A DNA stretch of 64,000 bases, from the sequence record NC_054911.1. One strand, written 5' to 3'. This document shows, piece after piece, positions 3,816-9,435 of the stretch. The position numbers were made by a program, and so were the translations under genes. Below the pieces are notes generated by a model. The model was given only the letters and a program-made list of their open reading frames with translations. It did not search any database and was not told where the DNA came from. Positions within the stretch are counted from its first letter, which is position 1. The number at the start of each line of letters is the position of its first letter. This DNA comes from Escherichia phage ECO4.

Positions 3816-4202
3816 TTATTCGAGGGAAAGAAGATACTTACTCTGGTAAAACATCCCAGTAATATCATCTATCGTGCTTTGAATGGCTGGAGGCATTTCT
3901 TTATAAATGCTGTTAGATTGGTCTAGTATGCGATCAATCATTTTAATTGTGTCGGTAGGAAGTTTACTGGCATCTGGAATTGAAGGCGTGTATTTTCTAC
4001 CAGAATACCCCAAATATTGCTCACCAAATTTATCAATCAAATCTGGCAATTCGGAGAAAATAAAATCGTATGCTTTGTGTCTAGCATAACTTTTAGTTTC
4101 AAAATGCGCAGAATGAAAATAAGCTTGTGCAGCCATTAATAAACCTAAGTATTCATCTGCCTTTGAAGGTTTTCCACTTTGTGAAAAGTCGCTGAATTTC
4201 AT
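3816..4202 (-). CDS. hypothetical protein, 128 aa
   Basis: ORF track; immediately downstream of rI. Confidence 0.5.
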
Positions 4203-4492
4203 TCAGTCTCCAATTTAATGTTCATAATTCTAGCGTATGATTGTGCCATCTCCGCGCCTCGTTCTATACATTCAAAATCAGAAGAGCACGGGTCATTTTT
4301 ATAGGTCGTTCTCATAAAACTATAGAACTGTTCAGATGATTCTACGCTTTTATTTTCAAAAAGCATATAAACATGTCTAATACCAGATTCCATAAATTTA
4401 TCAAAATGAGGATCGACATTCGCTTCAATTGGTGGAGATAAAGCAAATGACAATCCTAGCATGGCAAATAGTGCCGTTGCTTTTAAGGCCAT
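4199..4492 (-). CDS. rI: lysis-inhibition regulator RI-like periplasmic protein, 97 aa
   Basis: N-terminal signal-anchor (MALKATALFAMLGLSFALSPPIEA), length equals T4 RI, position next to tk. Confidence 0.7.
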   Translation of the reverse strand: MALKATALFAMLGLSFALSPPIEANVDPHFDKFMESGIRHVYMLFENKSVESSEQFYSFMRTTYKNDPCSSDFECIERGAEMAQSYARIMNIKLETE

Positions 4493-5341: not shown

Positions 5342-5350
5342 ATCACCTTC

Positions 5351-5536
5351 TTAAAGCGTATTCACATAAGCTATTAATTCATTTTCTTTCTTATCAAACC
5401 GATCAGCAAATTCTTCCTGCTGTTCGGGAGATAGCGGGCCGTATTCATCATAAAAGGTGTTTGCTTCTGTATGCTCATCTAGAAGTTCATGGATAAGCTC
5501 AAACAATTTATCTTTTTGTTCTTTGCTTAGACTCAC
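5351..5536 (-). CDS. hypothetical protein, 61 aa (GTG start)
   Basis: ORF track. Confidence 0.4.
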   Translation of the reverse strand: MSLSKEQKDKLFELIHELLDEHTEANTFYDEYGPLSPEQQEEFADRFDKKENELIAYVNTL

Positions 5537-5709
5537 AGTATGTCAATCCCCAAAAGTTTTAAAATGACTCGTTTCTGATTCATAACCGCTACGATTGAAT
5601 GACCGTTGTGGTCTTTTTGACCTGATCCAATTATAAATCCTTTTTGCGCAGAAAGTTCAATCAAAACATCAAGTTCACGTAATAATTGATATTTTAAATC
5701 ATCATTCAT
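5533..5709 (-). CDS. small ORF, about 58 aa (MNDDLKYQLLRELDVL...), not in ORF track
   Basis: Manual translation; ATG overlaps the upstream stop (ATGA). Confidence 0.3.
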   Translation of the reverse strand: MNDDLKYQLLRELDVLIELSAQKGFIIGSGQKDHNGHSIVAVMNQKRVILKLLGIDIL

Positions 5710-5933
5710 TTTGGTTTACCTTCTTTAACGAAATCAGGATAAGGATAAAATCCCGAATAAAATCCTTCACCTTTATGATTGATGCATCCTTTATTAGAAC
5801 AATAGCACCAATAATCGAAATCACAAGCCATTTCATCGTTGCATAAAGCAAAAACAACCGGCCACTTACACTTTTCACAGTGGGCATTTTTAAGAATACT
5901 AGTTTGGCTCATAACCATGTAACCTTTAAGCAA
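5706..5933 (-). CDS. cysteine-rich small protein, 75 aa, probable zinc-binding
   Basis: ORF track; multiple C-x2-C pairs. Confidence 0.45.
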   Translation of the reverse strand: MLKGYMVMSQTSILKNAHCEKCKWPVVFALCNDEMACDFDYWCYCSNKGCINHKGEGFYSGFYPYPDFVKEGKPK

Positions 5934-6121
5934 TATTCTTCTACATGTTGTTTACGACCTTTCTTATCAATAAAGGTATATTCAACGAATGTTCCAATGT
6001 AGTCTTTATCTACATCATGTGGACTATTAATTGGACATTTAGTACGGCAAATGCGTTCCCATTGACGAATAATTTCCACTTTGTTTTTAGGATCAAACGG
6101 ATGTGGGTAATGTACTTTCAT
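5909..6121 (-). CDS. hypothetical protein, 70 aa
   Basis: ORF track. Confidence 0.4.
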   Translation of the reverse strand: MKVHYPHPFDPKNKVEIIRQWERICRTKCPINSPHDVDKDYIGTFVEYTFIDKKGRKQHVEEYCLKVTWL

Positions 6122-6572
6122 AATCCACCACTATTAAATCAATATCAGGAGTAAACATGTCGATTAATTTAGAAACCTTATCCCAATCGCCGCCAGCAAT
6201 ACCACAACCTATGCGTGGAATGTAAATTACTGGTTTAAACAAAAGGGTTTCTGCCTGTAGATTTAATTCTATCATGCAGTTTACTAAAGCACCATAATCA
6301 AGATTAGGACCTGGTTCGTATTGCGTGTACAAGTTATAACATATGCCAAAACCATTAGGTTTATGTTTAAAAACAATAGACATATCGCCTAATTTATCAC
6401 GAGAACCGTACTCAGTAGTGGTTTTATCTATTTCTAAAATTTTGGGATAGGCTCTTGCTAATTGACCCGCTACACCTGAACCCATAGTATGAAAACAATT
6501 GCACCCGTGCGCAATAATATTACCTTGAAGAAATAGGGCGACAATATCGCCCTTGATATATTTTACAATCAT
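6093..6572 (-). CDS. macro-domain protein (ADP-ribose binding/processing fold), 159 aa
   Basis: Motifs KGDIV...GNIIAHGCNCFHTMGSGVAGQL and IPRIGCGIAGGDW resemble macro-domain signatures; ATG at 6570-6572. Confidence 0.6.
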   Translation of the reverse strand: MIVKYIKGDIVALFLQGNIIAHGCNCFHTMGSGVAGQLARAYPKILEIDKTTTEYGSRDKLGDMSIVFKHKPNGFGICYNLYTQYEPGPNLDYGALVNCMIELNLQAETLLFKPVIYIPRIGCGIAGGDWDKVSKLIDMFTPDIDLIVVDYESTLPTSV

Positions 6573-6910
6573 CTAGTACTCAATCCTCGATTATAAGAAT
6601 CTACCAAACGGTCAACCATTGAATGACAAGCGGCTTTATCTTTCTCCTCCGCAACTGAACATTCTAAGGTATTCCACTTTTTAGCATATCGTTTTAACAA
6701 TGTATCGTTTTTGTATCTGCTTGATTTATCTCTTTCTCCGTCTTTATATGCATATATTAATTTCTGCGCAAATTCAGCTTGGCATGCTTTATTTTTCCCG
6801 CAATAATCCGCTGCAGTACGGTTTACATACTCTCTAATTTCAGTATATGATGTATCTGCTAACGCAGAAAATGAAATTAATCCTATACATAAAACCAAAA
6901 TTTTAGTCAT
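6569..6910 (-). CDS. secreted cysteine-containing protein with signal peptide, 113 aa
   Basis: N-terminal MTKILVLCIGLISFSALA signal peptide. Confidence 0.5.
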   Translation of the reverse strand: MTKILVLCIGLISFSALADTSYTEIREYVNRTAADYCGKNKACQAEFAQKLIYAYKDGERDKSSRYKNDTLLKRYAKKWNTLECSVAEEKDKAACHSMVDRLVDSYNRGLSTR

Positions 6911-7448
6911 TTACTATTTCCAAAAGTTTATTATTTTTAAGGTAATTAGCCTTTTCTAGGACTTCAGAAGCATATTTAGAACCTGCTTTAACATTCCATC
7001 CCGAATTATAAGAGGATATTGCTTTTCTTATATCGCCCTTATGTATATTTAACCAATAAGAAAGTTCAATGTACGCCCAGGAAGCTGAATTGGACCGTTT
7101 ATTCAACATTCTTTTTATTTCAGCATCGGTCATATTATAACCAAGTTCCTTAACTCTTGCTCGCATAGTAGGCAAATAATTTTGGAACATTCCATAAGCG
7201 TGATGCTTTGGTTTAGATTTTAAATTAACTCCGCCAGAGCTTTCTTGCCATAAAATAGCAGCCATTATATGACCTAATCCGCTCTTGTGGATATTTTTGT
7301 GTGTTTTATATTTTCCATCCTTAGAAAATTGTTCCCCGAATTGATACGCGTAACGCATGTTATCGAGTTGGACATTACTGAAAGTATGCTCGGAGCTATG
7401 TGCCATCATTGAAATGGCCAATAGACCAGCGAGTAGTGCTTTTCTCAT
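6903..7448 (-). CDS. periplasmic SLT-like lytic transglycosylase, 181 aa
   Basis: Signal peptide plus SLT motifs (AILWQESSGG, HAYGMFQ, SSYNSGW). Confidence 0.6.
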   Translation of the reverse strand: MRKALLAGLLAISMMAHSSEHTFSNVQLDNMRYAYQFGEQFSKDGKYKTHKNIHKSGLGHIMAAILWQESSGGVNLKSKPKHHAYGMFQNYLPTMRARVKELGYNMTDAEIKRMLNKRSNSASWAYIELSYWLNIHKGDIRKAISSYNSGWNVKAGSKYASEVLEKANYLKNNKLLEIVND

Positions 7449-7455
7449 GCTTACC

Positions 7456-7917
7456 TCATTGAGTTTTAATTACTGCTTTAGAAGCCTTTCCTGGTAAACG
7501 ACGACTGTTGATAATTGCCATCCTACATTGAAGTGACGGGTCTTTGAACTTCGCATTAGGTTTACAAACTGTAAATCCAAGCCAAAGATTTCCATCTGTG
7601 ATTTCTAAACGTCCAGGACGATATTCAACCCCATCAATAAAATCCTCGTCAATGTCAGGACGCGGAGGCATACTCAGGAATTCATTAACTTCTAAAACAT
7701 GGTCTTTTATTTTATGGAATAATTCAAAAACATATGTCTCATCAATCTCCCGTTGAATTGCACGATCAAGAAGATGTTGAGAATATTTTAGATGAAACGA
7801 TGAGACTCCTGCTGCTTTTGATGCCTCACGAATCTCATTGTTAATTTGACGAAACTCCGACTCAAAGTGACGACGAAGCTTATTTCGACGGATAAAAACT
7901 TCTGTATTGATAGTCAT
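7456..7917 (-). CDS. regB: RegB site-specific endoribonuclease
   Basis: 153 aa; sequence matches T4 RegB as I recall it; early promoter immediately upstream. Confidence 0.85.
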   Translation of the reverse strand: MTINTEVFIRRNKLRRHFESEFRQINNEIREASKAAGVSSFHLKYSQHLLDRAIQREIDETYVFELFHKIKDHVLEVNEFLSMPPRPDIDEDFIDGVEYRPGRLEITDGNLWLGFTVCKPNAKFKDPSLQCRMAIINSRRLPGKASKAVIKTQ

Positions 7918-7944: not shown

Positions 7945-7974
7945 ATTATACCACAGTCAAGAGGAAAAGTAAAC
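7945..7974 (-). promoter_or_regulatory. T4-type early promoter (-35 GTTTAC, 18-nt spacer, -10 TATAAT)
   Basis: Read directly; about 28 nt upstream of the regB ATG. Confidence 0.6.
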
Positions 7975-8521: not shown

Positions 8522-8735
8522 ATTTGACTTCCTCACCAGTGCATAAATCATATTCAACTAAACGAATAGGTTCATGAATGCCATATCCCTGAACAGAAAT
8601 TTCTGTCGTAGGATAAATTCCATTAATATCACCCATGTTCCATGCTTCGTTAAATTGCTGTTCGCCTGAATTACTAAACCACTCGGCGAAAGCATTTAGC
8701 ACATCTTCAGAACCTTCAATAATTATCTTTGCCAT
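8514..8735 (-). CDS. hypothetical protein, 73 aa
   Basis: ORF track; ATG at 8733-8735. Confidence 0.4.
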   Translation of the reverse strand: MAKIIIEGSEDVLNAFAEWFSNSGEQQFNEAWNMGDINGIYPTTEISVQGYGIHEPIRLVEYDLCTGEEVKYD

Positions 8736-9097
8736 TACAAACTCTCGGTGAAGGTACGAGCGATAACGTCGCGCTGCTGTTCCGGAGTCAGAGAGTTAAA
8801 GCGAACTGCATAACCGGATACACGGATGGTCAGCTGCGGATATTTTTCCGGATGCTTAACTGCATCTTCCAGAGTTTCACGACGCAGAACGTTAACGTTC
8901 AGGTGTTGACCACCTTCAATTTTAACTGTAGGTTGTGTTTCAATTTCAATTTCACGGGCATGCAAACCATAGAAAATTTCTGGGTCTACAAAAGAGTCCT
9001 CTTTAAAGGTTTTAGAAACAATAATTCGCGCTTGAATACCATCTTCAAAATAAATAGTACCTTTATGCGTGCCTTCAAGAATTTGATATGCTTTCAT
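8735..9097 (-). CDS. autonomous glycyl-radical cofactor (GrcA/YfiD-like), 120 aa
   Basis: C-terminal glycyl-radical motif [25 protein letters not shown]; ATG at 9095-9097 with SD (track start is TTG). Confidence 0.75.
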
Positions 9098-9105
9098 ATA
9101 ACCTC

Positions 9106-9435
9106 TCAATTAGAAAATAAATTTATCCAAGATTGTTCTTTAATTAAAAATGGCTCAGAATCGTATGCCATTAAACTTTGGGTGATTAGTCCTTTAAAAG
9201 GTCCATCAATAAATTCCATAGTAAAATATGGAATTTTATTCATTAATCTTGCATTAGGAGCAGTACACAAAACTCTGCATCCTTTGAATACGCCTTTTTG
9301 TAATTTGTATTGCTTGGGATAAAATTCGCTCAAAATGTTATTTTTTGCCAAAATTTCAAAATGATTCACCAATTTATTTTTAATAGTTTTTGGCGAAAAA
9401 TAAAGATATTCGAAAAGTTGCGTATCTGTCATCAT
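9106..9435 (-). CDS. hypothetical protein, 109 aa (track ORF trimmed to ATG)
   Basis: ATG at 9433-9435 overlaps the upstream stop (ATGA). Confidence 0.4.

Follow-up and report, generated by a model that had tools for sequence, protein, structure and literature searches.

The closest described relatives of the genes analysed here are found in phage T4 and among bacterial antitoxins and murein-cleaving enzymes. Knocking out the T4 gene tk.4 makes the phage sensitive to DarTG2, hence the name adfM, for anti-DarT factor Macrodomain (2025 preprint, 10.1101/2025.11.20.689424). In a T4 transposon screen, DarTG2 was the only significant tk.4 result, and hydrolysis by AdfM is put forward in the same preprint only as an inferred activity (10.1101/2025.11.20.689424). 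The antitoxin macrodomain DarG uses a catalytic lysine (Lys80 in Thermus aquaticus DarG, within a T-K motif; motif residues as listed in PMC8120803), and it has a C-terminal DarT-binding domain and a darT gene beside its own. SCO6735 cleaves thymidine-linked ADP-ribose from DNA and counteracts the toxicity of DarT, and a Q85A mutant of it is inactive; both SCO6735 and TARG1 remove protein Glu/Asp-linked ADP-ribose as well (PMC9411070). The T4 gene vs has classically been assigned to a factor that binds the cytoplasmic valyl-tRNA synthetase (ValRS), as cited in PMC8076793. A vs knockout forms small plaques on M9 glucose, a defect that depends on nutrients.

The window analysed was a stretch of 64,000 nucleotides from Escherichia phage ECO4 (NC_054911.1), which is a Tequatrovirus (T4-like) genome. 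Megablast of the region matched 725 phage records, the best of them at 99.4% identity, with vs and regB annotated. The first-pass annotation had described three consecutive minus-strand genes downstream of regB, and the program-made list of open reading frames agrees with it exactly (159, 113 and 181 aa). These are the already-named T4-type genes tk.4, vs and vs.1. The gene order tk.4, vs, vs.1, regB is shared with T4, and the ECO4 proteins are 57% (Tk.4), 97% (Vs) and 100% (Vs.1) identical to their T4 counterparts. The features of the region are:

7945-7973, minus strand: predicted sigma-70 promoter of the early type, TTTACT-17-TATAAT plus extended TG (10/12 consensus matches), upstream of regB.
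7456-7917, minus strand: regB endoribonuclease gene, directly upstream of vs.1; Pfam REGB_T4 E = 1.4e-68, product 99% identical to T4 RegB.
6903-7448, minus strand: vs.1, a 181-aa predicted exported SLT/GH23-type lytic transglycosylase; predicted signal peptide at residues 1-18 (nt 7448-7395), Glu69 codon at 7244-7242.
6569-6910, minus strand: vs, 113 aa, annotated as valyl-tRNA synthetase modifier; predicted signal peptide at residues 1-18 (nt 6910-6857).
6093-6572, minus strand: tk.4/adfM allele, a stand-alone Gln-type macrodomain (SCO6735/BT1257-like) of 159 aa; Gln84 codon at 6323-6321.
6535-6553, minus strand: 8-bp G+C-rich hairpin followed by a U-rich stretch, within tk.4 codons 7-12.
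6095-6480, minus strand: mosaic segment covering the body of tk.4, 41-67% identical to T4 DNA by sliding identity.

The genes are tightly packed. The start of vs and the end of vs.1 overlap by 8 nt, the tk.4 start and vs stop share an ATGA overlap, and the 3' end of tk.4 overlaps tk.3 by 29 nt. All three are conserved across hundreds to thousands of phage records, and for their T4 orthologues RNA has been detected early and protein in the middle phase (PMC9697503 supplement), so we judged them to be real genes. The promoter upstream of regB is the likely source of a regB-vs.1-vs-tk.4 transcript, and together with the T4 expression data it fits the early expression proposed at first. The hairpin within tk.4 looks like a terminator or an element governing RNA stability; it is kept, with a few paired changes, in lineages encoding KGDIVAL. 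Our preferred reading, with a probability of about 0.7, is that the three genes form two separate functional units: tk.4 (adfM), which would encode an anti-DarT2 enzyme, and vs.1 with vs, which would encode an exported envelope pair.

Tk.4 had been called a macro-domain protein from the sequence, and the profile search confirmed it. Pfam Macro (PF01661) matched residues 22-136 over profile positions 2-117 of 118, with E = 6.2e-8 and 33.1 bits, above the cut-off of 22. Both the ECO4 and the T4 alleles matched the PADLOC DarG model (for ECO4, E = 4e-7, positions 3-144 of 329) and the macro region of the NCBIfam DarG model. The latter, antitoxin_DarG, was the best NCBIfam match of Tk.4, at 27.8 bits against an equivalog cut-off of 250. 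Matches to PDB sequences were BT1257, Poa1p, SCO6735, DarG and TARG1; BT1257 and SCO6735 were the closest, and DarG was aligned over the C-terminal loop only.

Orthology to AdfM is indicated by the shared vs - tk.4 - tk.3 order and by BLASTP to T4 Tk.4 (E = 1e-69). The two proteins are stand-alone macrodomains of ~155-159 aa in the same slot between vs and tk.3. They are alike over the N-terminal 50 residues and share His22, Asn25, Thr83-Gln84, Gly122 and Gly124. However, the overall identity of 57% drops to ~45% over the C-terminal two-thirds, the diphosphate loop of the active site differs (IGCGIAGGDW in ECO4, IGAGIGKGNW in T4), and the ECO4 allele is extended at the C-terminus by four residues, which overlap tk.3.

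Residues were compared in a MAFFT alignment including BT1257 and TARG1, in which the TARG1 row was partly verified against the PDB-search alignment. His22, Gly122 and Gly124 were invariant, and Asn25 and Gln84 were at least 90% conserved, with Gln84 replaced in the TARG1 row only. A family-wide N-[LA]-Y-T-Q motif aligned Gln84 with Lys84 of TARG1 and with the BT1257 glutamine. Tk.4 thus has the marks of a Gln-type ALC1-like macrodomain: Gln at the catalytic-Lys position, a G-C-G diphosphate loop and H-x-x-N. With DarG of DarTG2 it shares a homologous macrodomain and, presumably, the substrate, but it has Gln84 instead of the catalytic lysine, and its 159 aa, flanked by vs and tk.3, include neither a C-terminal DarT-binding domain nor an adjacent darT. 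SCO6735 and BT1257 also have Gln where DarG and TARG1 have the catalytic Lys, and they have a PRIGCG[IL]AGG loop in common with Tk.4. They differ from it in being bacterial housekeeping or DNA-damage proteins and in having a longer loop after the Gln, and an equivalent of Lys34 of SCO6735 is apparently absent from Tk.4 (Ser32, by numbering offset). The comparison suggests that AdfM works via the Gln-type mechanism of SCO6735, not via the DarG lysine.

The RefSeq name of Tk.4 is "phosphatase", and an A1pp match was noted in 2006. An ADP-ribose-1''-phosphate phosphatase acting on a small-molecule by-product would also agree with the match to Poa1p structures, which spans residues 3-79 at E = 1e-9. 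That match is limited to the N-terminal half, whereas the best full-length matches were BT1257, SCO6735 and DarG, and the genetic phenotype in T4 is DarTG2 sensitivity; we regard a phosphatase of this kind as highly improbable. As the preferred reading has it, Tk.4 (AdfM) would be a small cytoplasmic macrodomain, an orphan antitoxin-like enzyme with the SCO6735 Gln type of active site instead of the DarG Lys. It would strip DarT2-added ADP-ribose from the thymidines of phage single-stranded DNA, so that replication could continue.

The sequence of tk.4 is also mosaic. The flanks of 6095-6480 are mostly 93-100% identical to T4 (87% in one window in vs, where there is a 6-nt indel), and the contrast with the segment itself marks an allelic replacement. 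The ECO4 Tk.4 is 91-95% identical to the Tk.4 of loci in which Vs.1 is 66-68%, Vs 44-48% and RegB 58-59% identical, and its 90% cluster includes phages SP18 and VR7. The divergent allele has been exchanged between distantly related T-even-type phages. In the most distant loci, tk.4 was missing from the fetched flank. By these comparisons, tk.4 is an accessory gene exchanged separately from vs.1-vs. The first-pass annotation had grouped the three genes as one cluster; a single three-gene functional cluster was rejected, as the evolutionary history of tk.4 differs from that of the linked vs.1-vs pair.

Two roles had been proposed for the macro protein, counter-defence and regulation of the phage's own ADP-ribosylation, and only the first was borne out. 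The counter-defence role is supported, and it is already published for the T4 orthologue; DarTG2 protection is known for the T4 allele only, and for the ECO4 allele the role is putative. As a regulator, Tk.4 would tune the ADP-ribosylation carried out by Alt, ModA and ModB, erasing marks on host proteins or RNA. It is a macrodomain (Pfam Macro), and the removal of protein-linked ADP-ribose by SCO6735 and TARG1 would fit such a role. The TARG1/DarG/SCO6735 class acts on thymidine-DNA and Glu/Asp-linked adducts, however, whereas Alt, ModA and ModB of T4 ADP-ribosylate arginine, a modification that this class of macrodomain is not known to undo; regulation is therefore not favoured. In addition, the sole significant result for tk.4 in the transposon screen was DarTG2-specific, and tk.4 is non-essential, with alleles swapped between distant phages, which is typical of counter-defence genes. 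We consider a regulatory role very unlikely.

The 181-aa Vs.1 had been described as an SLT-like periplasmic protein with a catalytic Glu-Ser motif, and profile, alignment and model all agree with the SLT assignment. Pfam SLT matched it with E = 1.4e-5 and 25.1 bits, a narrow margin over the gathering cut-off of 21.3. The Glu-Ser motif is E69-S70 in WQESS. In an alignment of 18 sequences, down to 39% identity, E69, G86-x-F88-Q89 and Y147-N148-x-G150 were invariant, and S70 was at least 90% conserved. An AF2 model had a pLDDT of 88, and the top 21 Foldseek matches in the PDB were all lytic transglycosylases or GH23 chitinase (probability 0.97-1.0, E 5e-3 to 0.25), with MltD, Slt, LtgA, GH23 chitinase and the phi6 lysin among the top matches (TM ~0.45-0.54). 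PDB sequence searches, with the single sequence and with a profile, found no significant match of Vs.1 to any chain, and PADLOC and NCBIfam searches found none for Vs or Vs.1.

By profile, motifs and modelled fold, Vs.1 is a GH23/SLT lytic transglycosylase. Like the Slt70 C-domain, MltD and MltE/EmtA, it combines the motifs E-S, G-x-x-Q and Y-N-x-G with a GH23 fold in its model and a predicted Sec signal peptide; unlike family-1 lytic transglycosylases, it is very divergent, single-domain and phage-encoded. Vs.1-like matches were found in 2044 phage records, including Felixounavirus, Ackermannviridae and Straboviridae.

Both Vs.1 and Vs begin with the features of Sec signal peptides: a positive (K/R) n-region, a hydrophobic core and a cleavage motif with small residues at -3/-1. 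The N-termini are MRK-ALLAGLLAISMM-AHS in Vs.1, with the predicted cleavage before S, and MTK-ILVLCIGLISF-SALA in Vs, with the predicted cleavage before D. Signal peptides were called by simple rules, a crude filter rather than a trained predictor. The window has 79 ORFs that are 90 aa or longer, and of these the filter picked only vs, vs.1 and rI. K/R followed by a hydrophobic core free of acidic residues was found in 47/47 Vs-like and 17/18 Vs.1 sequences. An AxA motif is present in the N-terminus of all 47 Vs family members, some Vs homologues have a lipobox (LSGC), and all intact versions of Vs have a signal peptide or lipobox together with four conserved cysteines. Vs.1 and Vs would thus both be exported via Sec signal peptides, and Vs.1 would act in the periplasm during infection, cutting the murein of the host.

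For Vs.1, cell-wall remodelling early in infection rather than lysis, as first suggested, is plausible. Nolan et al. proposed "some role in cell lysis" for it. An auxiliary lysis enzyme, or a factor in superinfection or lysis from without, with Vs not controlling it, would be compatible with the SLT fold and predicted export; moreover, Vs.1 homologues adjoin rIIA/rIIB in Felixounavirus, and rI lies nearby in the ECO4 window. Yet the RNA for Vs.1 is early and the protein is there from the middle period on, while lysis of the T4-infected cell has to wait for holin and endolysin. A lysis role would also leave the tight vs.1-vs coupling across Straboviridae unexplained. Overall, we hold it to be unlikely.

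The 113-aa protein had been noted as secreted and cysteine-containing. The signal-peptide features and the cysteines, four of them invariant, held up, but the protein had not been recognised as the product of the annotated T4 gene vs, the valyl-tRNA synthetase modifier. Vs belongs to PHROG 1256 (E = 5.2e-40). Its predicted mature part has 95 aa and a calculated mass of 11.0 kDa, and the AF2 model is a four-helix protein. In family alignments Cys37, Cys43, Cys84 and Cys95 are invariant, the N-terminus varies and the mature part is conserved. No internal Met precedes residue 98, leaving no alternative start for a signal-less form. A search against PDB sequences matched nothing, and structure searches found no relative pointing to an inhibitor role. 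An exhaustive profile search of 1.84 billion proteins returned only 8 representatives, none above 119 aa.

This secreted look of Vs conflicts with a role on cytoplasmic ValRS: contact with the synthetase calls for a cytoplasmic location, and the sequence predicts export and disulfide bonding. It is possible, though doubtful, that Vs is a cytoplasmic peptide that binds and modifies the host synthetase, with its hydrophobic N-terminus unused or its export partial, and with the adjacency to vs.1 historical. T4 and hundreds of relatives carry the annotation, Müller & Marchin are cited for valyl-tRNA ligase binding in PMC8076793, and the nutrient dependence of the vs knockout defect fits a role in translation. 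In the original sequence record vs appears only as the unnamed ORF 60.9, and literature searches for work tying it to the ValRS-modifying factor gave secondary mentions only. The factor of 1970s biochemistry was ~10 kDa, close to the predicted mature mass of Vs. Binding of the factor to ValRS was assayed in extracts, in which compartments are mixed. Mutations in vs alter plating on valS(ts) hosts, which would argue for a cytoplasmic pool of Vs. Against a cytoplasmic Vs stand the K/R, hydrophobic core and AxA in 47/47 members and the lipobox in some, the four invariant cysteines, the variable N-terminus before a conserved mature part, the lack of a start for a signal-less form, and the invariable coupling of vs to the gene of a predicted exported enzyme.

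That coupling was seen in all fetched viral loci. A Vs-like reading frame begins -8 to +7 nt from the vs.1 stop in 55/55, and it is intact in 53. The other two have a truncated or frameshifted vs beside an intact vs.1, so Vs is not an obligatory antidote. No Vs-like gene adjoins the distant Vs.1 homologues of Felixounavirus and Ackermannviridae; in Slopekvirus, two other genes lie between the vs.1 and vs homologues. As judged from gene order, vs.1 is tightly linked to vs throughout the Straboviridae. The secreted look of Vs suggests a periplasmic Vs.1-Vs pair. The two genes would be translationally coupled and made from the early transcript. Vs would be a disulfide-bonded four-helix protein of the envelope, where it most likely works with Vs.1 or restrains it.

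A more specific proposal is offered tentatively, and we do not hold it to be probable: Vs would be a Sec-exported, disulfide-bonded periplasmic protein and a dedicated regulator or inhibitor partner of Vs.1, the pair would serve the Straboviridae as a conserved module for early remodelling of the envelope, and ValRS binding would be secondary or derived from extracts. Inhibition of Vs.1 by Vs is a hypothesis by analogy. In T4, Spackle (gp61.3) acts with the gp5 lysozyme, and a small exported disulfide-containing protein could likewise control a periplasmic muramidase-type enzyme; Ivy, MliC/PliC and LprI, the bacterial periplasmic inhibitors of lysozymes and lytic transglycosylases, are similarly analogues only. 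Sequence and structure searches found no sequence or fold similarity of Vs to Spackle, Ivy, MliC/PliC or LprI.

The macrodomain result is of confirmatory value, and a second, strongly diverged adfM allele moving between distant T-even-type phages is the pattern expected under arms-race pressure. Should Vs prove to be periplasmic and linked to Vs.1, the annotation propagated to hundreds of genomes is misleading, and if it is the partner of Vs.1, the minimal-medium defect of Δvs would stem from unrestrained Vs.1. The comparison of vs and vs.1 turns a fifty-year-old loose end, the purpose of vs, into simple experiments. If the proposed roles of Vs and Vs.1 are correct, they would also point to a class of enzymes, widespread in large virulent phages, that are exported early and cleave murein.

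The three minus-strand genes that the first-pass annotation had placed downstream of regB were found at exactly those positions. They are already known T4 genes, listed here with the regB gene and the promoter upstream of them:

6093-6572, minus strand: tk.4, a 159-aa ORF
6569-6910, minus strand: vs, a 113-aa ORF
6903-7448, minus strand: vs.1, a 181-aa ORF
7456-7917, minus strand: regB, directly upstream of vs.1
7973-7945, minus strand: early-type promoter (TTTACT-17-TATAAT with TG), upstream of regB

Their junctions indicate tight coupling from regB to tk.4. The vs.1 ATG lies 7 nt after the regB stop. The other junctions are overlaps: 8 nt between vs.1 and vs (ATGACTAA), ATGA between vs and tk.4, and 29 nt between tk.4 and the gene that follows it. 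Between regB and vs there is neither a strong promoter-like site nor a hairpin resembling a terminator. In time-resolved omics of T4, which classed all three proteins using proteome data, tk.4, vs and vs.1 have early RNA and middle protein (PMC9697503 supplement).

Codons 7-12 of tk.4, just past the vs stop, contain an 8-bp hairpin rich in G+C (AGGGCGAUAUUGUCGCCCU; 6535-6553, minus strand) and, after it, a U-rich stretch. The hairpin is kept in lineages encoding KGDIVAL, with a few paired changes (related loci L029, L032 and L047), and is missing from other lineages; the record of the relative fPS-2 has a terminator annotated under the match in this region. It could act as an attenuator of transcription reaching tk.4, or it could make the vs.1-vs mRNA more stable.

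The source genome is a Tequatrovirus. A 2.2-kb query around the locus matched 725 phage records (best 99.4% identity), with annotations including 'endoribonuclease RegB', 'valyl-tRNA synthetase modifier', 'macro domain protein' and 'phosphatase'. A synteny check against the T4 reference confirmed the shared order tk.3, tk.4, vs, vs.1, regB. Public databases already contain the exact protein sequences under the same names; the original 1986 record, X04567.1, gives them as unnamed ORFs 61.4, 60.9 and 60.5. The initial interpretation was largely right at the annotation level, with the macro and SLT domains correctly assigned, but the 113-aa secreted cysteine protein is vs, which had gone unrecognised as the annotated valyl-tRNA synthetase modifier. 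Farther along the minus strand (8735-9109) lies the orthologue of vs.6, a known T4 gene that relatives annotate as an autonomous glycyl radical cofactor (GrcA-like).

The proposal that the macro protein acts in counter-defence proved right and is already published for T4. In a November 2025 preprint, tk.4 was the single significant hit of a T4 transposon library on a host with DarTG2, whose DarT2 toxin puts ADP-ribose on thymidines in DNA; a clean T4 tk.4 knockout was DarTG2-sensitive, and the gene was named adfM (10.1101/2025.11.20.689424). Its authors infer that AdfM removes ADP-ribose from DNA.

Profile searches bore out the macro domain, as Tk.4 matched Pfam Macro above threshold. Among PDB sequences its best relatives were BT1257 (2afc/2fg1, E about 2e-10), SCO6735 (5e3b), the DarG macrodomain (5m3i), TARG1 and, over the N-terminal half only, yeast Poa1p. 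DarG was the sole match in PADLOC (E=4e-7 for the window allele, 1e-9 for the T4 allele), and the DarG equivalog was the best match in NCBIfam, over the macro part only and scoring far under the cut-off. Active sites were compared by aligning twelve family members with BT1257 and with what we take to be the TARG1 sequence, the C-terminal part of which agrees with the PDB search alignment. The motif N-[LA]-Y-T-Q is near-invariant in the family, and Gln84 aligns to a Gln in BT1257 and to Lys84 of this presumed TARG1 sequence. DarG has 'T-K' at this position, with Lys80 being essential (PMC8120803). SCO6735 has Gln85 there and no Lys/Asp pair, yet it removes ADP-ribose linked to thymidine in DNA and counteracts DarT toxicity; its Q85A mutant is dead (PMC9411070). 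Tk.4 retains His22, Asn25, Gly122 and Gly124, which by numbering offset appear to equate to SCO6735 His24, Asn27, Gly126 and Gly128. Given the Gln84 motif, the SCO6735 precedent and these conserved residues, the best description of Tk.4/AdfM is a stand-alone macrodomain of the Gln type, like SCO6735 and BT1257, with which it shares a Gln in place of the Lys of DarG and TARG1. Tk.4 being itself a DarG was ruled out, as it lacks the Lys, a DarT-binding domain and a darT neighbour.

Compared with T4, Vs.1 is 100% identical and Vs 97% (a two-residue deletion in the signal-peptide c-region), whereas Tk.4 is only 57% identical. Sliding DNA identity to T4 is mostly 93-100% across tk, tk.3, vs, vs.1 and regB, with one stretch at 87% in vs holding a 6-nt indel, and falls to 41-67% in the tk.4 body (about 6095-6480). 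The window's Tk.4 is 91-95% identical to its counterparts in certain divergent loci, where Vs.1 (66-68%), Vs (44-48%) and RegB (58-59%) are much less similar; phages SP18 and VR7 are among the members of its 90% cluster. The tk.4 allele has therefore passed between T-even-type phages that are only distantly related. In a blastn survey, 274 of 1011 records reached at least 80% query coverage. Many close relatives, T2 included, matched just bases 331-1356 of the query and therefore carry the other tk.4 allele. A second mosaic patch relative to T4 covers 5350-5900, most of which has a DNA identity of 22-42%. In place of the tk.1/tk.2 region it has other small ORFs, at 5351-5536, 5533-5709 and 5706-5933, the last matching Pfam Phage_zn_bind (E=3e-29).

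For Vs.1, the SLT assignment held in the profile search, with a Pfam score narrowly over gathering (25.1 vs 21.3 bits). The similarity has been on record since 2006 (Nolan et al.). A set of 18 homologues with identities as low as 39% keeps the catalytic Glu69, G86-x-F88-Q89 and Y147-N148-x-G150 without exception, and Ser70 in at least 90%. Sequence searches of the PDB gave no significant match. In a fold search, lytic transglycosylases headed the matches of the AlphaFold model (pLDDT 88). With probabilities of 0.97-1.0, E-values of 5e-3 to 0.25 and TM about 0.45-0.54, these top matches comprised MltD, Slt, LtgA, Cj0843, a GH23 chitinase and the phi6 lysin. Vs.1-like matches occur in 2044 phage records and reach Felixounavirus and Ackermannviridae at about 31% identity. 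Two of these distant homologues were inspected, in Escherichia phage Alf5 (locus L059, 1501-2049) and Shigella phage Ag3 (L058, about 1430-2049). Both lie outside Straboviridae and have a signal peptide as well as the E-S and Y-N-A-G motifs, and the Felixounavirus gene directly follows rIIA-rIIB. The annotated Ag3 gene is apparently too short N-terminally, losing signal peptide and catalytic Glu.

Vs (PHROG 1256, E=5e-40) begins with MTK, a 12-residue hydrophobic core and SALA|D. Four Cys of the mature part (37, 43, 84, 95) are invariant among close homologues and conserved in 47/47 distinct family members from related loci. The N-terminal region of the family is variable and the mature part conserved; homologues in several phages carry an N-terminal lipobox, LSGC. 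In L033, L034, L037 and L051, the vs-like ORF begins MKKLFVLLVVFALSGCK, with a lipoprotein lipobox in place of a signal-peptidase-I site. Tequatrovirus Vs sequences vary by a 2-residue indel exactly where cleavage is predicted (6857-6870; SALA|D, SASALA|D, SASASA|D), as is typical of relaxed constraint on a signal peptide.

A crude signal-peptide filter (K/R ahead of a hydrophobic decamer, Kyte-Doolittle mean >=2.0, no acidic residue) was passed by 47/47 Vs-like and 17/18 Vs.1 sequences. No macro protein passed, owing to acidic residues in the stretch and hydrophobic maxima <2.0. Among 79 window ORFs of at least 90 aa, the filter selected only vs, vs.1 and the positive control rI (4199-4492, minus strand), the periplasmic lysis-inhibition antiholin. 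The second and last Met of Vs is residue 98, so internal ATG initiation could not yield a signal-less form. Export of Vs is likely, judging from its sequence. In the AlphaFold model (pLDDT about 90 for the mature part), four helices form two hairpins whose turns hold the Cys pairs. Fold search found no structural relatives, and the local Pfam library gave no match. A profile search run exhaustively against 1.84 billion representatives returned just 8 matches, all <=119 aa, and by tblastn the family is confined to Straboviridae-type records.

Linkage was surveyed in 55 related viral loci fetched via the Vs.1 profile. A Vs-like reading frame directly followed vs.1 in all 55. It was intact in 53, including loci beyond reach of the narrow Vs profile, with about 99-122 aa, a signal peptide, four conserved Cys and a start -8 to +7 nt from the vs.1 stop. 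The other two have a damaged vs beside an intact vs.1, by an in-frame deletion removing the first Cys pair (L018, 4541-4798) and a frameshift (L036, 4549-4876). The damage may be genuine or may reflect sequencing errors; a genuine loss would mean that Vs is dispensable with Vs.1 present. In many loci a third ORF with a signal peptide, about 130-152 aa long, is inserted between vs and tk.4. The locus seems to collect exported proteins. This third family (L011-L015, L030, L035, L039, L043 and L049-L057, about 300-400 nt after vs.1) has a motif like AWExxPGYPE, mostly 2-4 Cys and no Pfam match; T4 and the window have no member. The flanks fetched for the most distant loci showed no macrodomain gene. 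Slopekvirus has two genes between a Vs.1 paralogue and the Vs-like gene, and no Vs-like gene adjoined the Vs.1 homologue in the Felixounavirus and Ackermannviridae loci inspected. Given this linkage and the variable macro gene and insertions, vs.1-vs is a conserved pair of predicted exported proteins within Straboviridae, probably translationally coupled, and tk.4 is an independent accessory neighbour.

A two-module account of the locus is best supported. One module would be a cytoplasmic AdfM-type macrodomain that would detoxify DarT2-modified phage DNA; its counter-defence role as such has already been demonstrated for T4. The other would pair a GH23 lytic transglycosylase with a helical, four-Cys partner, both of them exported. 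In the textbook view Vs binds the cytoplasmic valyl-tRNA synthetase, and an exported Vs is in real conflict with that role. The Δvs defect on minimal medium fits both views, and the predicted mature mass of 11.0 kDa is compatible with either, as is the finding that Vs with an N-terminal His tag is insoluble in E. coli (PMC8076793). It is reasonable to suppose that Vs and Vs.1 may be functional partners, and inhibition of Vs.1 by Vs would be just one possible form of this. The remaining interest lies in a divergent, horizontally exchanged adfM allele with a Gln-type active site, and in Vs, whose likely secretion is unexplained and which is universally coupled to Vs.1 within Straboviridae.
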